DNA of 64,000 nucleotides. Origin: Acidobacteriota bacterium. Lineage in GTDB: Bacteria > Acidobacteriota > Vicinamibacteria > Marinacidobacterales > Marinacidobacteraceae. The notes under the pieces were generated by a model. It was not told the origin of the DNA, ran no database searches, and saw only the letters and a list, made by a program, of their open reading frames with translations. Numbering within the stretch: position 1 is the first letter of the stretch; every line of letters starts with the position of its first letter. The stretch is taken from positions 69,613 to 133,612 of the forward strand of contig JAJEAO010000114.1 of NCBI GenBank assembly GCA_022822745.1, written 5' to 3'. A program made the position numbers and the translations under genes. Positions 8,960 through 37,322 of this stretch are shown piece after piece.

Positions 8960-9153
8960 GGCGGAGGCGGCGGCCCTCCCGGGCTCCTCGAGAGAAGACC
9001 CCCACCCACCCCGATCGCGAGAAAGGATAGCCCGGATTCCTCCCGCCGCCCGCAATCGGCGCGGGTGGATCGGGTCTCGATTCGACCGCCTGCCGCGGGA
9101 CGGCGCGGGCGCGGCGATTCGGACCGGCTGGCGCCGGATAAGATCCGCCGCCG

Positions 9154-9603
9154 ATGGACGCCCGGCCGGACCGCCCCCCGCGGACGGTCGTCTTCCTGTG
9201 CGTGGCGAACTCGGCGCGCAGCCAGCTCGCGGAGGCGGTGGCGAGGCCGATCGCTCCTCCGGGGGTTCGGGTGATGAGCGCGGGCTCGCAGCCCTGGCGG
9301 GTCCACCCGGTCGCGGTCCGGGTGCTCGCCGAGATCGGACTCGATGTCTCGGGCGCCCGCTCCAAGGGCACGGACGAGATCCCGATCGCGGAGGCAGACC
9401 TGGTCGTGACGCTGTGCGCCGAAGAGGTCTGCCCGGTCGTGCCGCCTTCGGTGCGGCGCCTCCACTGGCCGCTTCCCGATCCGGCGGCGGGATGGGGCGA
9501 GGAGGATCTGCTCCGGCGATTCCGGGCCACCCGCGACGAGCTGCGGACGCGGATCGCCGAGCTGTTCGAGCGGGAGTTCGCCCGCGACGCCCCGTCGGAG
9601 TGA
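9154..9603 (+). CDS. low-molecular-weight phosphotyrosine phosphatase / ArsC-family (thioredoxin-type arsenate reductase-like)
   Basis: P-loop CVANSARSQ (CX5R) at the N-terminus and conserved DLVVTLC...C block; 149 aa. Confidence 0.7.
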   Translation: MDARPDRPPRTVVFLCVANSARSQLAEAVARPIAPPGVRVMSAGSQPWRVHPVAVRVLAEIGLDVSGARSKGTDEIPIAEADLVVTLCAEEVCPVVPPSVRRLHWPLPDPAAGWGEEDLLRRFRATRDELRTRIAELFEREFARDAPSE

Positions 9604-9614
9604 TCTGACCCGGT

Positions 9615-11273
9615 TCAGCCGACGGCTGCGATCCGGGCCCGCTCCTCCAGCGCGATCCGGCGCGTCTCGTCCGGCGAAACGACATCGAACGCCACCTCGC
9701 TGCCGGGCAGCGCCTGCGCGAGACGATGGAGGTCGGGCTCGACGACGACGCCCAGCTTGGGGTATCCGCCGGTCACGCCCTGATCCGGACCCATGACGAT
9801 CGGCTGGCCCGACGCCGGAACCTGGACGGCGCCCGGGGGGCTCCCGTCCGAGACGATCTCGTCCCCGCCGGGAGTGTGGGTCAGACGCGGCCCTTCGAGC
9901 CGCACGCCCATCCGGTTCGAATCGCCCGAAACCCGAAAGCGGAGGTTCGGGAGCTCGGCGAGGCACTGCGGCGGAAAGCAGTCCTCCTGGGGTCCGAGGC
10001 TGATCCGGAGCCGCAGGGCGCCGCTCGCGGGCAGCCGGATGGCCTCCGGCAGATAGCGGTGCTCGCGCGCTCCCGGAGGCTCCGGGCCCACCGGGAGCCG
10101 GTCGCCGGCGCGCAGCCGTCGTCCTTCCAGGCCGCCGAGCCGGGCGAGACGATAGGTGGAGCGCGACCCGAGAACCGCGGGCGCCGCGATGCCTCCGGCG
10201 ACCGCCAGATAGGGCCGGAGCCCCGCCGGCGGGCCGGGAAACCGCAGCACGCTGCCCGCCGGCGCGCGGATGGAGGTTCCGAGCGGAACCCGCCACGGCG
10301 GTCGGCCGGGGAGCTGGAGAACGGCGCGGTGGTCGGCGCCTCCGAGAGCGAAGAGCGCTGCGCCCCGAAAGCGCAGAACCGGCCCCACGAGCGTCATCTC
10401 GAGCCCGGCGGCGGTGTCCGGGTTCCCCACCGCCCGGTTGGCGAGGCGCAACGAGACCGGGTCCGAGGCCCCGGAGCGCGGGACGGCAAGGTGGAGGTGG
10501 CCGAAGCGGCCCAGATCCTGGACGGTGGTCAGCAGCCCGCCCTTCTCGACTTCGATCCGGGTGTCGAAGTCGCCTGTCGGCGCGGGCGCAGGCCGGGTGG
10601 AATCGCTCTCGGGCAGCCGGGAGACCGGCGCGAAGCGGACCACATCCCCCGCGAGGTAGGGGGTGGGGGGTCTCCGGTCGAGATTCCAGAGAAGGCGGGG
10701 ATCCACCCGGCCGAGCACCCGCCACCCGGTCGGCGCCTCCCACGGATAGATCCCGACCTGACGGCGGGCCGTGATCAGCGATCCGGCGGGGACGCGGAGC
10801 CGGGGCGTGGCGCGCCGGGACACATCGAGGCGCGGATCCATCATCCCCATGTAGGCGAAGCCGGGGACGAACCCCATCGCGAGCACGCGGTAGTCCCGCC
10901 CGGCGTGAAGCCGGACCACTTCCTCGACCGGGAGTCCCGACCGCTCGGCGAGGAGCGGCAGATCCTCCCCGTCGTACACGCACGGGATCTCGATGCGCCG
11001 GCGGGGCGGAGGGGCTTCCGGGCTCGCGCGGCGAGCGAGTCGCAGAGCGTGTTTCCGGATGGCCTTCGGGTCGGCGGCCGGGTCGTGGAGAACCAGAACC
11101 GAGCGGTAGCTGGGCAGCGACTCCCGGTAGCCCTCGAACGGCTCCTCGTCGAGGAGCTGCGCCAGCGCCGTCGCCCGCGCGTTCAGTTCGAGAGAGATCC
11201 GATCGCCGAACTCGACGACGAAGGCCGACTCGCCGCCGCCGCGGATCCGGGGTTCGGAGGGGGTTCCGGCCAC
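9615..11273 (-). CDS. pxpBC: 5-oxoprolinase subunits B and C fused (PxpB-PxpC; KipI-KipA / allophanate hydrolase subunits 1+2)
   Basis: N-terminal half aligns with KipI/PxpB and C-terminal half with KipA/PxpC (...GMMDPRLDVSRRATPR... and ...VMGPDQGVTGGYPKLGVV...). It lies immediately upstream of pxpA on the same strand. Confidence 0.8.
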   Translation of the reverse strand: MAGTPSEPRIRGGGESAFVVEFGDRISLELNARATALAQLLDEEPFEGYRESLPSYRSVLVLHDPAADPKAIRKHALRLARRASPEAPPPRRRIEIPCVYDGEDLPLLAERSGLPVEEVVRLHAGRDYRVLAMGFVPGFAYMGMMDPRLDVSRRATPRLRVPAGSLITARRQVGIYPWEAPTGWRVLGRVDPRLLWNLDRRPPTPYLAGDVVRFAPVSRLPESDSTRPAPAPTGDFDTRIEVEKGGLLTTVQDLGRFGHLHLAVPRSGASDPVSLRLANRAVGNPDTAAGLEMTLVGPVLRFRGAALFALGGADHRAVLQLPGRPPWRVPLGTSIRAPAGSVLRFPGPPAGLRPYLAVAGGIAAPAVLGSRSTYRLARLGGLEGRRLRAGDRLPVGPEPPGAREHRYLPEAIRLPASGALRLRISLGPQEDCFPPQCLAELPNLRFRVSGDSNRMGVRLEGPRLTHTPGGDEIVSDGSPPGAVQVPASGQPIVMGPDQGVTGGYPKLGVVVEPDLHRLAQALPGSEVAFDVVSPDETRRIALEERARIAAVG

Positions 11274-17629: not shown

Positions 17630-18058
17630 GTGATCGAGTACGACAAGTTCCGGCGCTCGCTCGACCGCCTGGAGGAGCAGATCGCTCACTATCGGGGACT
17701 CGGTCCCTCGGCGCCCCGACTGACCCGGGAAGGCATCGCCGAGTCGGTGATCCGGCGTTTCGAGATCTGCTACGACCGCCTCTGCAAGGTGCTGCAGCGG
17801 CACCTGGTGGAAGCGCTCGGAATCCCTCATCCTCCCCACAGCCCGAATCCGATCCCGCGACTGGCTCACGAGAACGACCTCTTCGAGGCCCCCATCGAAC
17901 AGTGGATGCGTTACTCGCGCGCCCGGATCGCCACGCAGCGCGACGGCGACCGCGACCAGGCGCGCGCCGCACTGGACATCATTCCGGACTTCCTCGACGA
18001 CGCGATCACCCTGTACGAGACGATGACGAGAGAGCGATGGAATCTGCGCCAGCCATAG
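17630..18058 (+). CDS. HEPN-domain protein, HI0074-family nucleotidyltransferase substrate-binding protein (HEPN/MNT toxin-antitoxin component)
   Basis: 142 aa; sequence pattern (...RRFEICYDRLCKVLQRHL...) fits the HI0074/HEPN family. It overlaps the downstream MNT gene by 22 nt. Confidence 0.7.
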   Translation: MIEYDKFRRSLDRLEEQIAHYRGLGPSAPRLTREGIAESVIRRFEICYDRLCKVLQRHLVEALGIPHPPHSPNPIPRLAHENDLFEAPIEQWMRYSRARIATQRDGDRDQARAALDIIPDFLDDAITLYETMTRERWNLRQP

Positions 18059-18393
18059 ACATCACCCCTGCCGCCCGTCGGGTTGTCCTGGACCTCATCG
18101 CGAAGCACCTGCCGAACACCGAGGTCTGGCCCTACGGCTCGCGGGTCCGGGGAACTTCCACTCCGAAGTCCGACCTCGACCTCGTGGCCCTTGCGGAGCC
18201 CGACAGCGTCGCCGCCGTCGCCGAGCTTCGGGAGGCATTCGAGGAGAGTTTCCTCCCGTTCCGCGTGGACCTCTGGGTCTGGAAGGAGATCCCTGCGTCG
18301 TTCCGGCAGCAGGTCGCGATGCGCCACGCCGTGCTGGCGCACGGCGACGAATCGAACGAACGCGAAACACAGTCAACGGCAGACGCAGACTGA
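18037..18393 (+). CDS. minimal nucleotidyltransferase (MNT, HI0073-like) partner of HEPN protein
   Basis: GS-x9-12-DxD motif: WPYGSRVRGTSTPKSDLDLVAL; 118 aa. Start chosen at internal Met MESAPAID within the long artefactual ORF 16450..18393. Confidence 0.75.
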   Translation: MESAPAIDITPAARRVVLDLIAKHLPNTEVWPYGSRVRGTSTPKSDLDLVALAEPDSVAAVAELREAFEESFLPFRVDLWVWKEIPASFRQQVAMRHAVLAHGDESNERETQSTADAD

Positions 18394-18424
18394 CGGCACC
18401 CGACCCGCATTCCCGGAGGACGCC

Positions 18425-20533
18425 ATGACCGAACCTGAACCCGCCGCCAACCGCGCACTCGATCTCAAGAGCGACGAGGGTCTCCGCGAGGCCTGTCGCC
18501 GCGCCGAAGCAGCAATGGACCCGGAGCGGATCCGCACACTGGCCGACTACCTGAAGCGCGTCCACGACTTTCCCGCCGAGGAACGCTCCTCGCTGGGGTT
18601 CCACGAACTCATCTGGCTGGACGAAACCATCTGGAAGCCGAGACCTGGACATGCCCCCGGTATGGAAGAGATCCTCTCGAGTATCGAGTTCCGGCAGTGG
18701 TTCGCGGACCAGATCGAGGCGCCTCTCGCGGGGTCCGAACCGGCTCACTGGGAGCAGGAGTTCCAGCGCCTGTTTCGGGAAGTTCGCGAGTACAGCGGGG
18801 TCGGGAGGAAGTGGAAACCAAAGCTGGTCGTGCTACGGGGCCTGGCCGCGATCTTCCCGCGCCACCTGAGCGGGGTTGCCCGGACTGGCCACGCTGCAGC
18901 ACTGGCCCGGAAAATGGGGATTTCGACGACCTCGGGAACCGCCGGCACGCGCATCGCCGGCAGACTGGACAAGGTGCTCGGCCCAGTGGGCGACGAGGAC
19001 TGGAAGTCCATCGCAACGCGCATGGAGCTCTCGATCGCTCTCTGGCGGAAGTACGTCCGTGATCCGCGCTACTGGCTCCTCGCCCTCGGTGAGAAGTCGC
19101 ATCGGTGGAAGTCGTGCAAACAGACGGGAGTAGCCACTCTGGGTTGGGACGTCGCCGGTGACCTCAGAAAGTATGCGACAAGGGACGACATTCCGCTGAA
19201 GTCCAATAGCTCGTTGGCCTGCTGGCAATTCTCCCGCGAGATGCAGCCAGGGGACGTCATCTTCGTCAAGCTCGGATCGAGGAGTGTGCTCGGGCACGGC
19301 ATCATCCAGTCGAACTACCGCTTCGAGGGAGAACGTCCGGATCACCGCAACGTGCGCGACGTAGAGTGGCGTTCCGACATGGGGCCCGAGGGGGCGAGGG
19401 TGGACTTCGGTCCTACCGAGATCGAGCAGTTCCCCTTGAAGACCCTGACGAATATCACGAGCTACAGGTTGATACAGCAACAGATTCGGCGCGCCCTCGG
19501 TGTCCTCCCCGGGCCGACTCCTCCGGACCCCAAGCGGCTGATCACGCCGGAGGTTCCCTCGCTACTGACTGTGGTCGAGGCCTTCGAGCGGCTGCGTGAG
19601 GCAGAGGAGCCCCTCAGATTTCCCGCCGAGCTGGTGGAGACACTCCACACCGGGCTGTGGACGGACGAGAGGCGGCACTTTGCGGTGCTCACCGGACTCT
19701 CGGGCGCAGGCAAGACGCGGCTCGCGCTCGAATACGCCAGGACGATCACTGCGGGCGACAGGGACGCCACAGTGACGATCACGGTGCAGCCCGGATGGCA
19801 CGACCCGGCGCACCTCCTCGGCCATGTGAACCCGTTGAATGCGGAGGAGTACTTTCGGACGCCGTTCCTGAACCTGCTGCTCCGCGCGAGGGACCGCCCG
19901 GCGACGCCGCATGTCGCGATTCTCGACGAGATGAACCTCTCCCATGTCGAGCAGTACCTGGCGCCGGTCCTGAGCGCCATGGAGACCGGGGATGCGCTCG
20001 CGCTCCACGAGTCGGACGAGATCACGGATGTCCCGAAGGAGCTTCCCTACCCCTCGAATCTGGTCCTGATCGGAACCGTGAACATGGACGAGACGACGGT
20101 CGGCATCTCGGACAAGGTGCTGGACCGGGCGTTCACGCTGGAGTTCTGGGACATCGAAGTCGAGGAGTGGGCCGGCTGGGACGGATGCAGACTGAACGAC
20201 AAGGACCGGGAGGTCGTCCGAGGCGTCCTCGACGACCTGATGGCGGCGCTGAAACCGGCGCGGCTCCACTTCGGTTGGCGGGTGATCCGGGAGGTCGCGC
20301 GCTTCGTCGAGCGCTCGATCTCGGATGAGATCGCCCGCGACAAGGCGCTCGACCGGGTCGTGTATGCCAAGGTGCTGCCGAAGCTGCGGGGCGACGACTC
20401 CGAACGCTTCCGGACGGCGCTCAAGGCATGCCGGAAGGCCCTCGAGAAGCACGGGCTGATGAAGTGCCGGAGCAAGGTGAAGGAGATGAAGTCCGACCTC
20501 GACGAGACCGGCAGCGTCCGCTTCTGGCGGTAG
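18425..20533 (+). CDS. mcrB: McrB-family AAA+ GTPase (type IV restriction, 5-methylcytosine-type) with N-terminal unknown domain + EVE/PUA-like domain
   Basis: Walker A LTGLSGAGKTRLA, Walker B VAILDEMN, and the McrB-specific block LIGTVNMDETTVGISDKVLDRAF (cf. IIGTMNTADRSLAVVDYALRRRF). Residues about 246-355 (RYWLLALGEKSHRW...GDVIFVKLGSRSVLGHGIIQSNYRFEGE...VEW) match the EVE fold. GGAGGA sits 5 nt upstream of ATG 18425. The first 114 codons of ORF 18083.. are artefact. Confidence 0.8.
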   Translation: MTEPEPAANRALDLKSDEGLREACRRAEAAMDPERIRTLADYLKRVHDFPAEERSSLGFHELIWLDETIWKPRPGHAPGMEEILSSIEFRQWFADQIEAPLAGSEPAHWEQEFQRLFREVREYSGVGRKWKPKLVVLRGLAAIFPRHLSGVARTGHAAALARKMGISTTSGTAGTRIAGRLDKVLGPVGDEDWKSIATRMELSIALWRKYVRDPRYWLLALGEKSHRWKSCKQTGVATLGWDVAGDLRKYATRDDIPLKSNSSLACWQFSREMQPGDVIFVKLGSRSVLGHGIIQSNYRFEGERPDHRNVRDVEWRSDMGPEGARVDFGPTEIEQFPLKTLTNITSYRLIQQQIRRALGVLPGPTPPDPKRLITPEVPSLLTVVEAFERLREAEEPLRFPAELVETLHTGLWTDERRHFAVLTGLSGAGKTRLALEYARTITAGDRDATVTITVQPGWHDPAHLLGHVNPLNAEEYFRTPFLNLLLRARDRPATPHVAILDEMNLSHVEQYLAPVLSAMETGDALALHESDEITDVPKELPYPSNLVLIGTVNMDETTVGISDKVLDRAFTLEFWDIEVEEWAGWDGCRLNDKDREVVRGVLDDLMAALKPARLHFGWRVIREVARFVERSISDEIARDKALDRVVYAKVLPKLRGDDSERFRTALKACRKALEKHGLMKCRSKVKEMKSDLDETGSVRFWR

Positions 20534-20544
20534 GAGGCGCGAAC

Positions 20545-22149
20545 ATGGGCGCCGCCGACCTGGGGCTTCGGGTCGGCCCCGCGGGCGGAGAACTCCGGCC
20601 GCTGACCGGCGAAAAGCCCATCACCGGATTCACCGAGCTCCGTGCAGTCGGCTTCGAGGCACCTTCGGAACTCGAGGGCGACCTCTACGTGGACGACGTG
20701 AAGATGGAGCGAACCCACTCCAGCTGGACCTGGACACCGGGGTTCTACGCCGGCGAAGTCCGCTGCGAGTTCGTCTCCTGCCGCGGTCATTCGCTCGGGC
20801 GATACTGGCTCGATGTCAGTCCCGATCCTTCGAAGCTGGGTCGGGATCTCTTCCATCAGATGCTCGGCGAGATCGCGGATTTCCACCCCGGTCTCCTCGA
20901 AGGCGCCGGGCCGGCGCGCCACACCCTCGGTCCGCTTCGCCGCGATGCGAACCCGACGATCGAATTCGTCCGGCTGCGCCGCCGGACGGGCCGGATCCAA
21001 CGGGCGCTCGCCGAAATCCGGGCGCATCCCATCCGCGGCCTGCGGGACCGGCGCGATCTGGTCCCTCCGCGGCATATGCGGCGCGCCGACCACCGCACAG
21101 TGCGCCTGGCCCTGCGCCGCCGCGCGGCCCGCTCCCTCCTCCTGGACCGAGGATCGGCCAGCCCCGAGCGCGTCCGGTTCGACGTACCCTCGGTGGAACA
21201 CACGCTCGACGCCCCCGCGAACCGGGTGGCGCTGGCGATGCTCCTCGCGCTCATGAGGCGATGCCGGGAAGTCTCCGAGGGGCTCGCCGGGCGCGCGCCG
21301 GAGGATGCGAACCACCACGAGTCGCCCGACTCGGAGCGGAGCCACGAGCGGGCGCGGGCGGAGCGCTGGATCACGATTCTCGATTTGTTCCGGCGCGACC
21401 TCGATCTCATCCGGAGGAAGACGCCGTTCTCGGCCGTCCGCCGGCCGGGGCTCTCCGCCGCGGGGTTGAACGCGGTCTCGGCGCACCCGCTCTACGCCCG
21501 CTTCTACCGGCTGGCGTGGGAGGCCCTGCGCCGCGGTCTCGGTGACTCGCCGGAGGATCCACTGCCGCTGAGCCCAACCTGGGGCCTCTACGAACGCTGG
21601 TGTCTCGCCGCGGTGGCGCGCTGGCTGGGCCATTGGCGAACCGACCTCGGCGGGTGGAGGAAAGCACGGGGCGACCGCTGGCGCAGCCGTTCCGAGGACG
21701 GAGACCTCGACCTGACCCTGACGCTCCAGGCAGCCGCGCCCGGCCCCGACGAGAGTGTTAAAGGGCCGGGGGGCGGAGGACTGTGGTCCGTCTCGAAGCT
21801 GATGCAGCCAGATCTCGTGCTCGAATGGAGGCGCCGCGACGGACGCCGTGGATTCCTTGTCCTCGACGCAAAGTACCGCTCTGGAAGGGACAACATCCTG
21901 AAGGGGATGAAGGAGTCGGCACACGTTTATCAGGACGCCCTGCGGATGGGCGCCCGCCGTCCCGCCGCGACGCTGCTCCTCGTGCCTGACGCCTCCAACG
22001 TGCACTGGCTCGCCGAGGAGGAGTTCGTCCGCGAGCACCGGGTCGGGGCCATCCCGCTTCGCCCCGGGACCGATCCTCCCCCGTGGTTCGGCTCGTTCCT
22101 CGCCGACGCAGTGCGTCGCCACTCGACCCACCAGCACGGAAAGATGTGA
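20545..22149 (+). CDS. mcrC: McrC-family PD-(D/E)xK endonuclease subunit
   Basis: C-terminal nuclease core ...QPDLVLEWRRRDGRRGFLVLDAKYR (D...(D/E)xK). It lies directly downstream of mcrB with GGAGG 7 nt before ATG 20545. Confidence 0.7.
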   Translation: MGAADLGLRVGPAGGELRPLTGEKPITGFTELRAVGFEAPSELEGDLYVDDVKMERTHSSWTWTPGFYAGEVRCEFVSCRGHSLGRYWLDVSPDPSKLGRDLFHQMLGEIADFHPGLLEGAGPARHTLGPLRRDANPTIEFVRLRRRTGRIQRALAEIRAHPIRGLRDRRDLVPPRHMRRADHRTVRLALRRRAARSLLLDRGSASPERVRFDVPSVEHTLDAPANRVALAMLLALMRRCREVSEGLAGRAPEDANHHESPDSERSHERARAERWITILDLFRRDLDLIRRKTPFSAVRRPGLSAAGLNAVSAHPLYARFYRLAWEALRRGLGDSPEDPLPLSPTWGLYERWCLAAVARWLGHWRTDLGGWRKARGDRWRSRSEDGDLDLTLTLQAAAPGPDESVKGPGGGGLWSVSKLMQPDLVLEWRRRDGRRGFLVLDAKYRSGRDNILKGMKESAHVYQDALRMGARRPAATLLLVPDASNVHWLAEEEFVREHRVGAIPLRPGTDPPPWFGSFLADAVRRHSTHQHGKM

Positions 22150-22745
22150 TGTCAAGGTTCTCCGTGATTCCCGGAAATCTGGATGCCAGCGCCATGGAGG
22201 CGATCTCGCCCGCGGCGCTCGCCGCGTACGCGCGCAGGTTGGGTTGGCGCAAGATGGAGCCGTACGGAGACACATCGGATGTGTACGTCCATGACGCGAA
22301 ACCGGAGATCCTCATCCCCCGCACGCAGCGTCTCGCCGACTACGCACGGGTGGTGGCCGCACTCATCGAGGCCTTCGCCGACGAGACCGGCCACGACGTG
22401 TCTTCGGTCCATCGGATGCTCGCGGCAACCGACCCGGACGCGGTGTCCTCTGTGCTTCGGCCGGATGTGCGCCTTCGCGGCTTCGTCAACCGACTGAAGC
22501 GATCGGAAGAGGAGCGAACCGGCACGATCGGCCTGCGAACCATCGTGGACGGGCGGCATCGGTCGGTTCAGGTCGTGCTCCCGCAAGCGGACTACGAGCG
22601 CGCAGCGGAAGCGCACAAGGCGCGCGCCATGGTGGAGATGCGAGGCGACCTGGAACAGTTCGGCCAGCGCTGGCGCCTGCTGAACCCGCGGCTCACCGAC
22701 GTGATCCGGAGCGACGAAGCCGACGATCCGGCGGACGCCGCGTAG
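22149..22745 (+). CDS. hypothetical protein (198 aa), translationally coupled to mcrC (TGATG overlap); third gene of the McrBC-like operon
   Basis: ATG 22149..22151 overlaps the mcrC TGA 22147..22149. Soluble, acidic C-terminus, no recognisable motif. Confidence 0.55.
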   Translation: MSRFSVIPGNLDASAMEAISPAALAAYARRLGWRKMEPYGDTSDVYVHDAKPEILIPRTQRLADYARVVAALIEAFADETGHDVSSVHRMLAATDPDAVSSVLRPDVRLRGFVNRLKRSEEERTGTIGLRTIVDGRHRSVQVVLPQADYERAAEAHKARAMVEMRGDLEQFGQRWRLLNPRLTDVIRSDEADDPADAA

Positions 22746-23989: not shown

Positions 23990-24245
23990 AATTGCCGCAC
24001 CCCTACCGGGAGAACCGGTGGAGGGCGGCGCTTCATGGAGAGCGGCGTTCCATGGAGAAGCGGCGTTCCGTGGGCGCACCGGAGACGCGACGGCTGGAGT
24101 GGGACGCGGTGCCGCTCTGGAGAGCGGCGCTCCATAGCAGAGCGGCGCTCCATACACGCCGGTTGGATGGGGCGCGGTGCCGCTCTGGAGAGCGGCGCTC
24201 CATAGCGGAGCGGCGCTACACAGGAAGAGCGGCGCTACACAGGAG
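23990..24245. repeat. REP-like repeat array, copy B: two copies of motif M2 (gcggtgccgctctggagagcggcgctccata at 24106..24136 and 24174..24204) plus about 5 degenerate 16-19-nt half-units (gagcggcg[c/t]t[c/a]ca...)
   Basis: Tandem and interspersed sub-repeats were read directly. M2 also occurs at 54890..54920 and 61977..62007. Confidence 0.65.
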
Positions 24246-24247
24246 AG

Positions 24248-25558
24248 CTACGCGGGGACGGGGCGCTTGGCGGGGCCGAGGTAGATCTGCTTCGGGCGGG
24301 CGATCTTCTGCTCGCGGTCGCCGAGCATCTCGTCCCACTGGGCCAGCCAGCCGGACATGCGGGGCACCGCGAAGAGGACGGGGAACAGGCCGACCGGGAA
24401 GCCCAGCGCCTCGTAGATGATCCCGGAGTAGAAGTCCACGTTCGGGTAGAGCCGCCGTTTCACGAAGTACTCCTCGCCGAGCGCGATCCGCTCCAGTTCG
24501 AGCGCGATGTCGATCTTGGGGTTCTTCCCGGTGACCTCGAACACCTCGTAGGCCGTCCTCTTGATGATCCGGGCGCGCGGGTCGTAGCTCTTGTACACCC
24601 GGTGGCCGAACCCCATGAGCCGCCGCTCCCCGCGGCGCACCGAGTCCATGAAGGCGGGAATCCCCTCGATGGAGCCGATCTCGTCGAGCATCCGCAGCAC
24701 CGCCTCGTTCGCGCCCCCGTGGAGAGGGCCGTAGAGCGCGGCGGCCGCGGCGGCGGCCGAGGAGTAGGGGTCGGCGTGGGAGCTGCCCACGCCCCGCATC
24801 GCCGAGGTGGAGCAGTTCTGCTCATGGTCGGCGTGGAGAACGAACAGGACATCCATGGCCCGCTCCAGCACCGGATCCGGCTTGTAGCCCGATCCCTCGC
24901 CACCAAACACCATGTTCAGGAAGTTCGCCGGGAGGCTCAGATCCTCGCGGGGCGGGACGACCGAAAGGCCGCGGCCGTGGCGGTACGCCATCGCCGCCAG
25001 CGTCGGCGCGGCCGCGATCAGCCGCCGGACGTGCTCGGCCCGAACGGCGGGATCCGCGACCGCCTTGGACTCGGGGTGCATCGCGCCGAGGCCGGCGAGG
25101 AGGGCGATGAAGATGGCCATCGGGTGGCCATCGGCGCGGAACCCCTCCAGCATGCGCGGGAGCGGGTCGGGAACCCCGGCGCGGGCGGCGATTTCGGCCG
25201 CCCACACCCGGCTCTCGTCTGGGGTCGGCAGCTCGCCGTTCAGGATCAGCCAGGCGGTGTCGAGGTAGCTGGTCGTCCCCGCAAGCTCCTCGATCGGGTA
25301 GCCCCGGTACTCGAGGATCCCGCGGTCGCCGTCTATGTAGGTGATGCGGCTGATGCAGTTCGCCGTGTTCTTGAACGCCGGGTCGTAGGTCGCGAGCCCC
25401 GGATCGTCCTCGCCGGCGCGGACCTGCCCCAGCGCGGTGGCGCGGACCGTCCCGTGTTCGACGGGCAGCTCGTAGTCGTGGCCGGTCCTCGGATCGCTGA
25501 CGCGCAGCGAGAAGGAGCCGGGGAGTTCAGGGGTGTCGGATTCCGTGTTGACAGGCAA
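24248..25558 (-). CDS. gltA: citrate synthase (type II, GltA)
   Basis: Strong citrate synthase similarity including ...GFGHRVYKSYDPRA... and ...LHADHEQN...; 436 aa. Confidence 0.9.
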   Translation of the reverse strand: MPVNTESDTPELPGSFSLRVSDPRTGHDYELPVEHGTVRATALGQVRAGEDDPGLATYDPAFKNTANCISRITYIDGDRGILEYRGYPIEELAGTTSYLDTAWLILNGELPTPDESRVWAAEIAARAGVPDPLPRMLEGFRADGHPMAIFIALLAGLGAMHPESKAVADPAVRAEHVRRLIAAAPTLAAMAYRHGRGLSVVPPREDLSLPANFLNMVFGGEGSGYKPDPVLERAMDVLFVLHADHEQNCSTSAMRGVGSSHADPYSSAAAAAAALYGPLHGGANEAVLRMLDEIGSIEGIPAFMDSVRRGERRLMGFGHRVYKSYDPRARIIKRTAYEVFEVTGKNPKIDIALELERIALGEEYFVKRRLYPNVDFYSGIIYEALGFPVGLFPVLFAVPRMSGWLAQWDEMLGDREQKIARPKQIYLGPAKRPVPA

Positions 25559-26947: not shown

Positions 26948-27022
26948 TGGTGCGCGGTACAGGGTTCGAACCTGTGACTCCCTGCGTGTAAGGCAGGTGC
27001 TCTACCGCTGAGCTAACCGCGC
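26948..27022 (-). tRNA. tRNA-Val (anticodon TAC), CCA encoded
   Basis: Manual fold: acceptor GCGCGGT/ACCGCGC, D-arm GCTC-AGCGGTA-GAGC, anticodon arm CCTGC-CTTACAC-GCAGG, T-arm ACAGG-TTCGAAC-CCTGT, then ACCA. Confidence 0.9.
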
Positions 27023-37186: not shown

Positions 37187-37263
37187 CTGGTCGGGACGGC
37201 CGGATTTGAACCGACGACCACTTGCACCCCAAGCAAGTGCGCTACCAGACTGCGCCACGTCCC
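37187..37263 (-). tRNA. tRNA-Pro (anticodon GGG), CCA encoded
   Basis: Manual fold: acceptor CGGGACG/CGTCCCG, D-arm GCGC-AGTCTGGTA-GCGC, anticodon arm CTTGC-TTGGGGT-GCAAG, T-arm GTCGG-TTCAAAT-CCGGC, then ACCA. Confidence 0.9.
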
Positions 37264-37322
37264 GACGGGCGTCGAAGAGAGGGCGGGATTCTACGCCGCC
37301 GCGGGAATCCGATGCGCCCGGG

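Follow-up and report, generated by a model that had tools for sequence, protein, structure and literature searches.

This analysis revealed that the low-GC defence island at positions 17,630 to 22,745 of the 64-kb stretch of Acidobacteriota DNA under study (contig JAJEAO010000114.1; the whole stretch is called the window below) is likely an old, vertically inherited and eroding locus, in which an intact McrBC core of the NxD type lies between a HEPN/MNT pair whose toxin is mutated and what is left of the candidate system PDC-M02, a truncated relic without its partner that is referred to as gene 5. The five co-directional genes described in a first-pass annotation of this DNA were all recovered by open reading frame (ORF) listing and translation. 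These include the HEPN/MNT pair with its 22-nt overlap, which is borne out by matches to PF08780, NTP_transf_2 and MntA, and the McrB/McrC pair, which is borne out by Pfam and PADLOC profiles and by alignment to E. coli McrB structures. With HEPN/MNT directly upstream of McrB/McrC, the earlier description of the locus as a defence island is also supported. The features of the island are as follows:

17630..18058, + strand: HEPN protein of the HepT / HI0074 type, 142 aa (PF08780, 3.3e-13)
18037..18393, + strand: MNT, MntA-type minimal nucleotidyltransferase, 118 aa (NTP_transf_2, 2.5e-10; MntA_antitoxin, 4.5e-12)
18425..20533, + strand: McrB-like gene, 702 aa (AAA_5; PADLOC PDC-M26A, 6.5e-38)
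20545..22149, + strand: McrC-like nuclease with DUF2357 and PD-(D/E)xK, 534 aa (PF09823, PF04411)
22093..22160, + strand: deletion scar 1, 68 bp compared with ~570 bp in the syntenic locus L001
22149..22745, + strand: gene 5, probable PDC-M02B remnant, 198 aa (PDC-M02B, best 2e-42)

The low GC content reported earlier was confirmed. The island has a GC content of 0.672 compared with 0.7155 for the window, the lowest of all 5.1-kb sliding windows within the 64 kb, and the GC content at third codon positions (GC3) of its genes (0.79-0.84) is also below that of the housekeeping neighbours ispG, aminotransferase, gltA and DAO (0.91-0.94).

In the scenario that we favour, the island would occupy a fixed chromosomal site, bounded by an outer membrane protein (OMP) gene with ispG and, at the other end, by the aminotransferase and citrate synthase genes. 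Its working core would be a McrBC-type Type IV restriction enzyme, the motifs of which are intact. If the enzyme works as E. coli McrBC does, modified foreign DNA would be bound by the reader modules of McrB, and McrB would assemble into hexamers. GTP hydrolysis would be stimulated by McrC, and translocation would end in cleavage, with McrC as the nuclease. The flanking genes would be relics of two accessory modules, which ride together elsewhere in hsdM-HEPN-MNT::hsdS-M02A-M02B-hsdR operons. The upstream relic would be the HEPN/MNT pair, with a HEPN RNase that lacks its catalytic histidine. The downstream relic would have arisen by deletion of the DUF4365 nuclease gene M02A and by in-frame loss of the middle domain of a ~380-aa M02B, so that the 198-aa gene 5 remains. 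With the deletion of M02A, the start of gene 5 would also have come to lie on the stop codon of mcrC.

Gene 5 and the syntenic loci

Gene 5 had been put forward as an undescribed third gene of the McrBC operon. This proposal did not hold, as gene 5 was found to be an internally deleted PDC-M02B without its partner, and McrBC stands beside M02B in only 1 of 81 surveyed loci. Gene 5 is not a dedicated McrBC subunit; most likely, it is a relic whose reading frame has stayed open without a function, or at best it encodes an orphan protein that binds nucleic acid. It gave no Pfam or NCBIfam match. It matched 30 PADLOC PDC-M02B profiles (best 2e-42), with aa 12-100 aligned to positions 12-100 of the profile and aa 104-189 aligned to positions 292-377 of 380. 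The middle ~190 residues, corresponding to residues ~95-285 of the modelled full-length homologue, are missing. An exhaustive HMMER search identified 872 cluster representatives of the PDC-M02B family, nearly all of them 370-390 aa long and carrying the same two matched pieces; the exhaustive search was required, since a word-indexed homologue search with gene 5 alone returned two matches. Given that full-length members of the family comprise about 380 aa and that gene 5 is matched only at its ends, we conclude that gene 5 is a member of this family without its centre.

A full-length M02B (P0163) was modelled with a mean predicted local distance difference test (pLDDT) score of 86.5 and exhibits three parts: an N-terminal alpha/beta domain (aa 1-98), a middle alpha/beta domain, and a C-terminal five-stranded barrel with one helix. 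The C-terminal domain that is kept in gene 5 is confidently modelled as an OB fold. In gene 5, the N-terminal alpha/beta domain (aa 1-~99) is joined directly to this C-terminal OB fold (aa ~104-190), and the scar of the internal deletion lies at about 22445-22457. When the M02B model was compared with the PDB using Foldseek, no match below 1e-2 was obtained, the top matches being again OB folds, and sequence searches with M02B against the PDB and Pfam returned nothing meaningful. No M02A homologue was found in the 64-kb window by iterated profile search of all window ORFs. With regard to membership in PDC-M02, neither a full-length three-domain M02B nor an adjacent M02A is therefore present in the window. 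An assembly artefact as the origin of the deletion in gene 5 was ruled out, as the identical 198-aa gene is present in independent ENA and Logan assemblies.

Four other genomes, among them L001, L084 and L091, were found to share the flanks of the island, namely ispG, MerB, DoxX and the OMP gene on one side and the aminotransferase, citrate synthase and DAO genes on the other. In L001, the order HEPN-MNT-McrB-McrC is followed by a 121-aa DUF4365 ORF and then by a 379-aa M02B. The DUF4365 ORF matches PDC-M02A at 1.6e-38 and ends early at its C-terminus, at about position 122 of the 167 in the profile. The L001 M02B is broken by one frameshift in a CCCCTTTT homopolymer run (L001:9885-9900) and, after repair of this frameshift, matches positions 1-377 of the 380-position profile (3e-110). 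Comparison of the window with L001 by BLASTN showed that exactly two L001 blocks are absent: 9087-9654, comprising the 3' end of mcrC, the whole of M02A and a spacer, and 9940-10510, corresponding to the middle of M02B. At the first deletion, ~570 bp of L001 are replaced by 68 bp in the window, and the C-terminus of McrC is rewritten. In L084 and L091, HEPN-MNT-McrB-McrC is followed directly by the aminotransferase gene, and no M02 genes are present. These loci form a decay series, leading from L001 (M02A truncated, M02B frameshifted) through the window to L084 and L091, in which nothing of the M02 pair is left.

The TGATG overlap noted in the first-pass annotation is present in the window, where the ATG of gene 5 overlaps the TGA of mcrC at the junction GTGATGTCA, but it is not conserved. 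In L089, the closest relative, which carries the 198-aa short form as well, the position of the mcrC stop reads CGA and mcrC extends 19 nt into gene 5. As the deletion of M02A set the start of gene 5 on the mcrC stop, it explains the apparent translational coupling between the two genes. The comparison with L089 also gave an indication of the constraint on gene 5: 15 nonsynonymous and 5 synonymous substitutions were counted, corresponding to a ratio of nonsynonymous to synonymous rates (omega) of 1.04, compared with 3 nonsynonymous and 28 synonymous substitutions (omega 0.035) in the adjacent aminotransferase gene. The proportion of 15 nonsynonymous substitutions out of 20 has a binomial P of 0.004 against an omega of 0.25.

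With regard to the age of the island, the synonymous divergence (dS) from L001 was 0.62-0.87 for the island and 0.50-0.64 for its flanks. The GC dip is shared by the orthologous islands, which have the same site and gene order in the four genomes. The island is bounded by no att-like direct repeats, and neither an integrase nor an adjacent tRNA was detected. The similar dS of island and flanks, the shared GC dip and the lack of marks of mobility point to an old island that has been inherited vertically. Moreover, the boundaries of the two indels lie inside genes (the 3' end of mcrC and the middle of M02B), which argues for deletions and not for insertions.

Other features were observed around the island. 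A tRNA-Val(TAC) gene (26948-27022) and a tRNA-Pro(GGG) gene (37188-37264) lie on the minus strand, neither of them beside the island. Three to four copies of a ~53-nt palindromic repeat resembling repetitive extragenic palindromic (REP) elements are present at 24018-24253, between the aminotransferase and citrate synthase genes, and a 32-nt core of this repeat recurs at the same place in L001 (12045-12076).

The usual home of the flanking modules

A genome scan with an alignment of closer sequences, covering one genome per species, yielded 80 loci with M02B, which together with L001 make up the 81 loci surveyed. Their gene content was determined by iterated profile searches of six-frame ORFs. 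M02A is located directly upstream of M02B in 66 of the 81 loci. HsdS was found in 46 loci, HsdR in 45 and HsdM in 37, and a HEPN and MNT pair lies upstream on the same strand in 33-34 of the 81 loci; McrB and McrC were found in L001 only. The commonest full arrangement is hsdM-HEPN-MNT-hsdS-M02A-M02B-hsdR, and Pfam and PADLOC confirmed the identity of HsdS (between MNT and M02A), HsdR (after M02B) and HsdM. In 30 loci, MNT and HsdS form one uninterrupted reading frame (L024:5798-7501, L018:6269-7939, L058:5885-7501 and 27 further loci); the MNT of the window stands alone. Such a single frame physically ties the HEPN antidote to the restriction-modification (R-M) complex.

The HEPN and MNT of the window are 50-61% identical to those embedded in these Type I R-M operons. 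Judging from these sequence comparisons, the nearest relatives of both flanking modules belong to one kind of Type I operon, and McrBC in this lineage occupies the place of hsdS. No hsdM, hsdS or hsdR was detected in the 64-kb window by iterated profile search of all window ORFs. An analogous arrangement is that of PrrC in the EcoprrI Type I R-M system, in which an accessory effector nested among hsd genes guards the R-M system, much as M02A-M02B lie between hsdS and hsdR. The likeness is one of analogy only, there being no sequence relationship, and since the hsd genes are absent from the window, guard logic of the PrrC type cannot operate there.

The M02A-M02B pair was also observed on its own, for example on a Gluconobacter conjugative plasmid, where the genes are annotated as 'DUF4365 domain-containing protein' and 'hypothetical protein'. 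In some loci, the place of M02A directly upstream of M02B is taken by another PADLOC candidate: a DUF1828/DUF1829 protein (PDC-M24B, 6.5e-96) at L053:7190-7975 and a 1078-aa DEAD-box helicase (PDC-M23B) at L026:4753-7986. M02B may pair with alternative partners. The M02A of the relatives shares its DUF4365 PD-(D/E)xK-type domain with DREN, the effector of SPARDA short-Argonaute systems. In contrast to DREN, M02A stands alone, with neither an APAZ fusion nor an Argonaute partner, and it is missing from the window.

PDC systems in PADLOC are candidates defined by their embedding in BREX, DISARM or Type I R-M systems, that is, through guilt by embedding (Payne et al., bioRxiv 10.1101/2024.01.29.577857). 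The window resembles PDC-M02 in that gene 5 matches M02B and in that the syntenic L001 carries an A-B pair at the same place. It differs in lacking M02A and residues ~95-285 of M02B, and PDC-M02 is itself only a candidate system. Our literature search retrieved no paper that mentions PDC-M02 or DUF8426, and the literature on DUF4365 concerned SPARDA and Argonaute systems and not the M02A-M02B pair.

With regard to the HEPN/MNT pair, the MNT motif G-S...D-L-D is intact, and MNT also matches the N-terminus of the PADLOC Specificity_I model PDLC03138 (1.7e-15). The Rx4-6H motif is the catalytic motif of HEPN RNases. In the HEPN of the window, its histidine is replaced by arginine (RIATQRD compared with RIDTTHD in relatives), and no histidine is present nearby. 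Alignment of this HEPN to 36 homologues and three orthologues from syntenic loci showed the same loss in two more samples of the species besides the window. The histidine is kept in L001, L084 and L091, and most HEPNs from Type I R-M loci read R-I-D-T-[ST]-H-D. As the histidine of this motif is lost, the RNase activity and toxicity of the HEPN are doubtful, and from its sequence the protein is probably inactive as an RNase.

The pair resembles the HepT/MntA type VII toxin-antitoxin (TA) systems, such as SO_3166/SO_3165 of Shewanella, in that a PF08780 HEPN adjoins and overlaps a minimal nucleotidyltransferase with a G-S...DxD motif. It differs from them in that HEPN comes first in the window, in that the Rx4-6H histidine has become an arginine, and in that MNT is fused to HsdS in most relatives. 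In characterised systems, MntA neutralises HepT by AMPylation, as Songailiene et al. reportedly described in 2020.

A conserved linkage of HEPN/MNT to McrBC holds for the four syntenic relatives, at this one site, but not beyond them, as HEPN/MNT are missing from the three more distant McrBC loci L085, L092 and L093. The linkage is thus specific to this lineage and site.

The McrBC core

McrB is composed of three parts, whose coordinates are as follows:

18425..19060, + strand: N-terminal all-helical domain, aa 1-212 (DUF8426 in newer Pfam)
19061..19480, + strand: beta-rich insert, presumed reader, aa ~213-350 (YWLLALG...GWD...GDVIFVK...GHG; PADLOC PDC-S02)
19556..20533, + strand: AAA+ GTPase domain (Walker A GLSGAGKT, Walker B ILDEMN, signature N-M-D-E)

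The GTPase domain aligns to the E. coli McrB structures 6hz4, 6ut6 and 7vsr at 3e-4 with Walker A and B in register, and the motifs are invariant in 12 homologues. The signature, VNMDETT at 20087-20107, is an NxD(E) variant, and HMMER aligns N-M-D-E gaplessly onto NTAD. The NxD(E) branch of McrB is large and has no characterised member (Bell et al., eLife 2024, PMC11090510). The window thus resembles E. coli McrBC in its AAA+ GTPase with Walker A/B motifs and signature region, in the DUF2357 and PD-(D/E)xK McrC immediately downstream, and in the variability of its presumed readers, which lie N-terminal to the GTPase. It differs in the signature itself (N-M-D-E versus NTAD) and in the N-terminus, which consists of DUF8426 and a beta-rich insert and not of a DUF3578-type reader.

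The helical N-terminal domain, DUF8426, is common to the McrB family. It weakly resembles HhH-GPD DNA glycosylases, a likeness that we treat as a lead only. Searches of the PDB and Pfam gave no sequence-level support for it, and no invariant aspartate or lysine was found among eight members, which would point to a reader without catalytic activity.

The beta-rich insert matches PADLOC PDC-S02 at 3.5e-8 (aa 217-317) and has no sequence match in Pfam or the PDB. It had been labelled an EVE domain in the first-pass annotation; this label was not confirmed, as seven family members gave no Pfam EVE match at E<=10 and no PDB profile match was obtained. The AlphaFold2 model of McrB aa 1-410 has a pLDDT below 50 over aa 213-384, too low for a comparison of its fold with EVE. 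This low confidence is probably due to the fact that only 3 of the 13 aligned sequences carry the domain there. The beta-rich module is mobile within the family: the window, L001 and L084 have it at an internal position, the syntenic orthologue P0281 lacks it, and in the 912-aa P0274 type it is located at the extreme N-terminus. In a comparison of the window with P0274, P0281 and P0285, the 912-aa relatives were found to carry a winged-helix-like insert at the internal position instead.

McrC is encoded 11 nt downstream of mcrB, and McrC lies downstream of McrB in all relatives. It scores at Pfam's gathering threshold for both of its families (PF09823, 23.3 bits for a cut-off of 23.3; PF04411, 22.8 bits for a cut-off of 22.1), and its PD-(D/E)xK motif is present (QPDLVLEW...LVLDAKYR). 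Compared with L089 (422-2032), McrC is 81.5% identical with a dS of 0.30, against 99.2% identity and a dS of 0.10 for the aminotransferase and a dS of 0.03 for gene 5. This mosaic divergence of McrC hints at recombination or diversifying selection.

Alternative explanations and implications

Several observations weigh against the reading of the island as an eroding one. The omega of ~1 for gene 5 rests on 20 substitutions, and an omega of 0.43 would be compatible with them (P = 0.07). The N- and C-terminal parts of gene 5 give an omega of 0.21-0.27 against L001, a comparison in which most of the branch probably predates the deletion. The gene 5 ORF is still intact in at least four independent samples, and a HEPN without its histidine need not be a useless protein. 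The frameshift of L001 falls within the CCCCTTTT run of a long-read-style assembly and may be a sequencing or assembly error, not a pseudogene lesion. Furthermore, short forms consisting of the N-terminal domain and the OB fold arose independently in at least three other lineages (P0003, P0034, P0110). The P0003 form lies, without a DUF4365 partner, between a Type III res-like gene (a weak match, 8.8e-7) and a Type III mod gene, and a recurrent short architecture could have a use of its own. The short M02B of this Type III setting at L002:10001-10558 is 185 aa long, with a PDC-M07A-type ABC ATPase upstream.

These points bear on the main alternative, which we consider unlikely and in which the short M02B, with its N domain and OB fold, is a functional, streamlined accessory that binds single-stranded nucleic acid and works with the host restriction system, here McrBC. 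Its role might be that of a sensor or adaptor, with translation coupled to mcrC, which would agree with an ORF that is intact and overlaps mcrC in all samples of the species and in its closest relative, and with the retention of a domain confidently modelled as an OB fold. However, gene 5 evolves at an omega of ~1 against that relative while its neighbour genes are constrained, it is missing from two syntenic genomes that keep McrBC, and the geometry of the overlap differs even in the closest relative. Short forms make up ~0.5% of the family representatives, as expected of sporadic in-frame decay, and ORFs stay open by chance in high-GC DNA. Two bolder readings have a similarly low probability overall. 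In one, DUF8426 would be derived from the HhH-GPD DNA-glycosylase fold and serve as a base-flipping reader of modified or damaged bases; in the other, the recurrent short M02B would be a functional nucleic-acid-binding accessory that plugs into Type IV restriction here and into Type III restriction in L002. Far less probable is the reading that all five genes form one new co-functioning defence system, composed of a TA module, McrBC and a dedicated third operon gene, as had been suggested earlier. The tight co-directional packing with overlaps and the HEPN-MNT-McrBC linkage kept in four syntenic genomes would favour it, but this linkage is confined to one site and one lineage, McrBC occurring without HEPN/MNT in L085, L092 and L093. 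The HEPN carries a mutation in its active site, gene 5 belongs in truncated form to another candidate system, one of two genes, and the closest relatives of both flanking modules are found in Type I R-M operons. The locus is better described as one intact system together with the relics of two others. It is also very improbable that the island was acquired recently by horizontal transfer and that the differences among relatives are independent insertions instead of decay. A GC and GC3 below those of the flanks, and a divergence from L089 that is much higher in McrC than in the flanks, could be explained in this way. Against this stand the same site, gene order and GC dip in four genomes, an island dS that matches the flank dS against L001, and indel boundaries inside genes, which fit deletions rather than insertions; in addition, the searches for flanking direct repeats, an integrase or an adjacent tRNA were negative.

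The significance of the eroding-island reading is mainly corrective: the supposed new subunit of McrBC turns out to be a decaying part of a candidate system that is already catalogued, and the neighbouring toxin is probably dead. As deletions can create gene overlap and tight packing, these features are weak evidence of shared function. The survey also indicates that in many uncultured lineages PDC-M02 and HEPN/MNT are carried jointly by Type I R-M operons, in which MNT is usually fused to HsdS, and it provides a first domain description of M02B. The uncharacterised N-terminal domain of McrB, whose fold may be glycosylase-like, is flagged as a further lead. If DUF8426 were indeed a glycosylase-derived reader, it would represent a previously undescribed kind of specificity module in Type IV restriction, within a branch of McrB that has no characterised member. 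These leads bear on the accessory "guard" modules of restriction systems.

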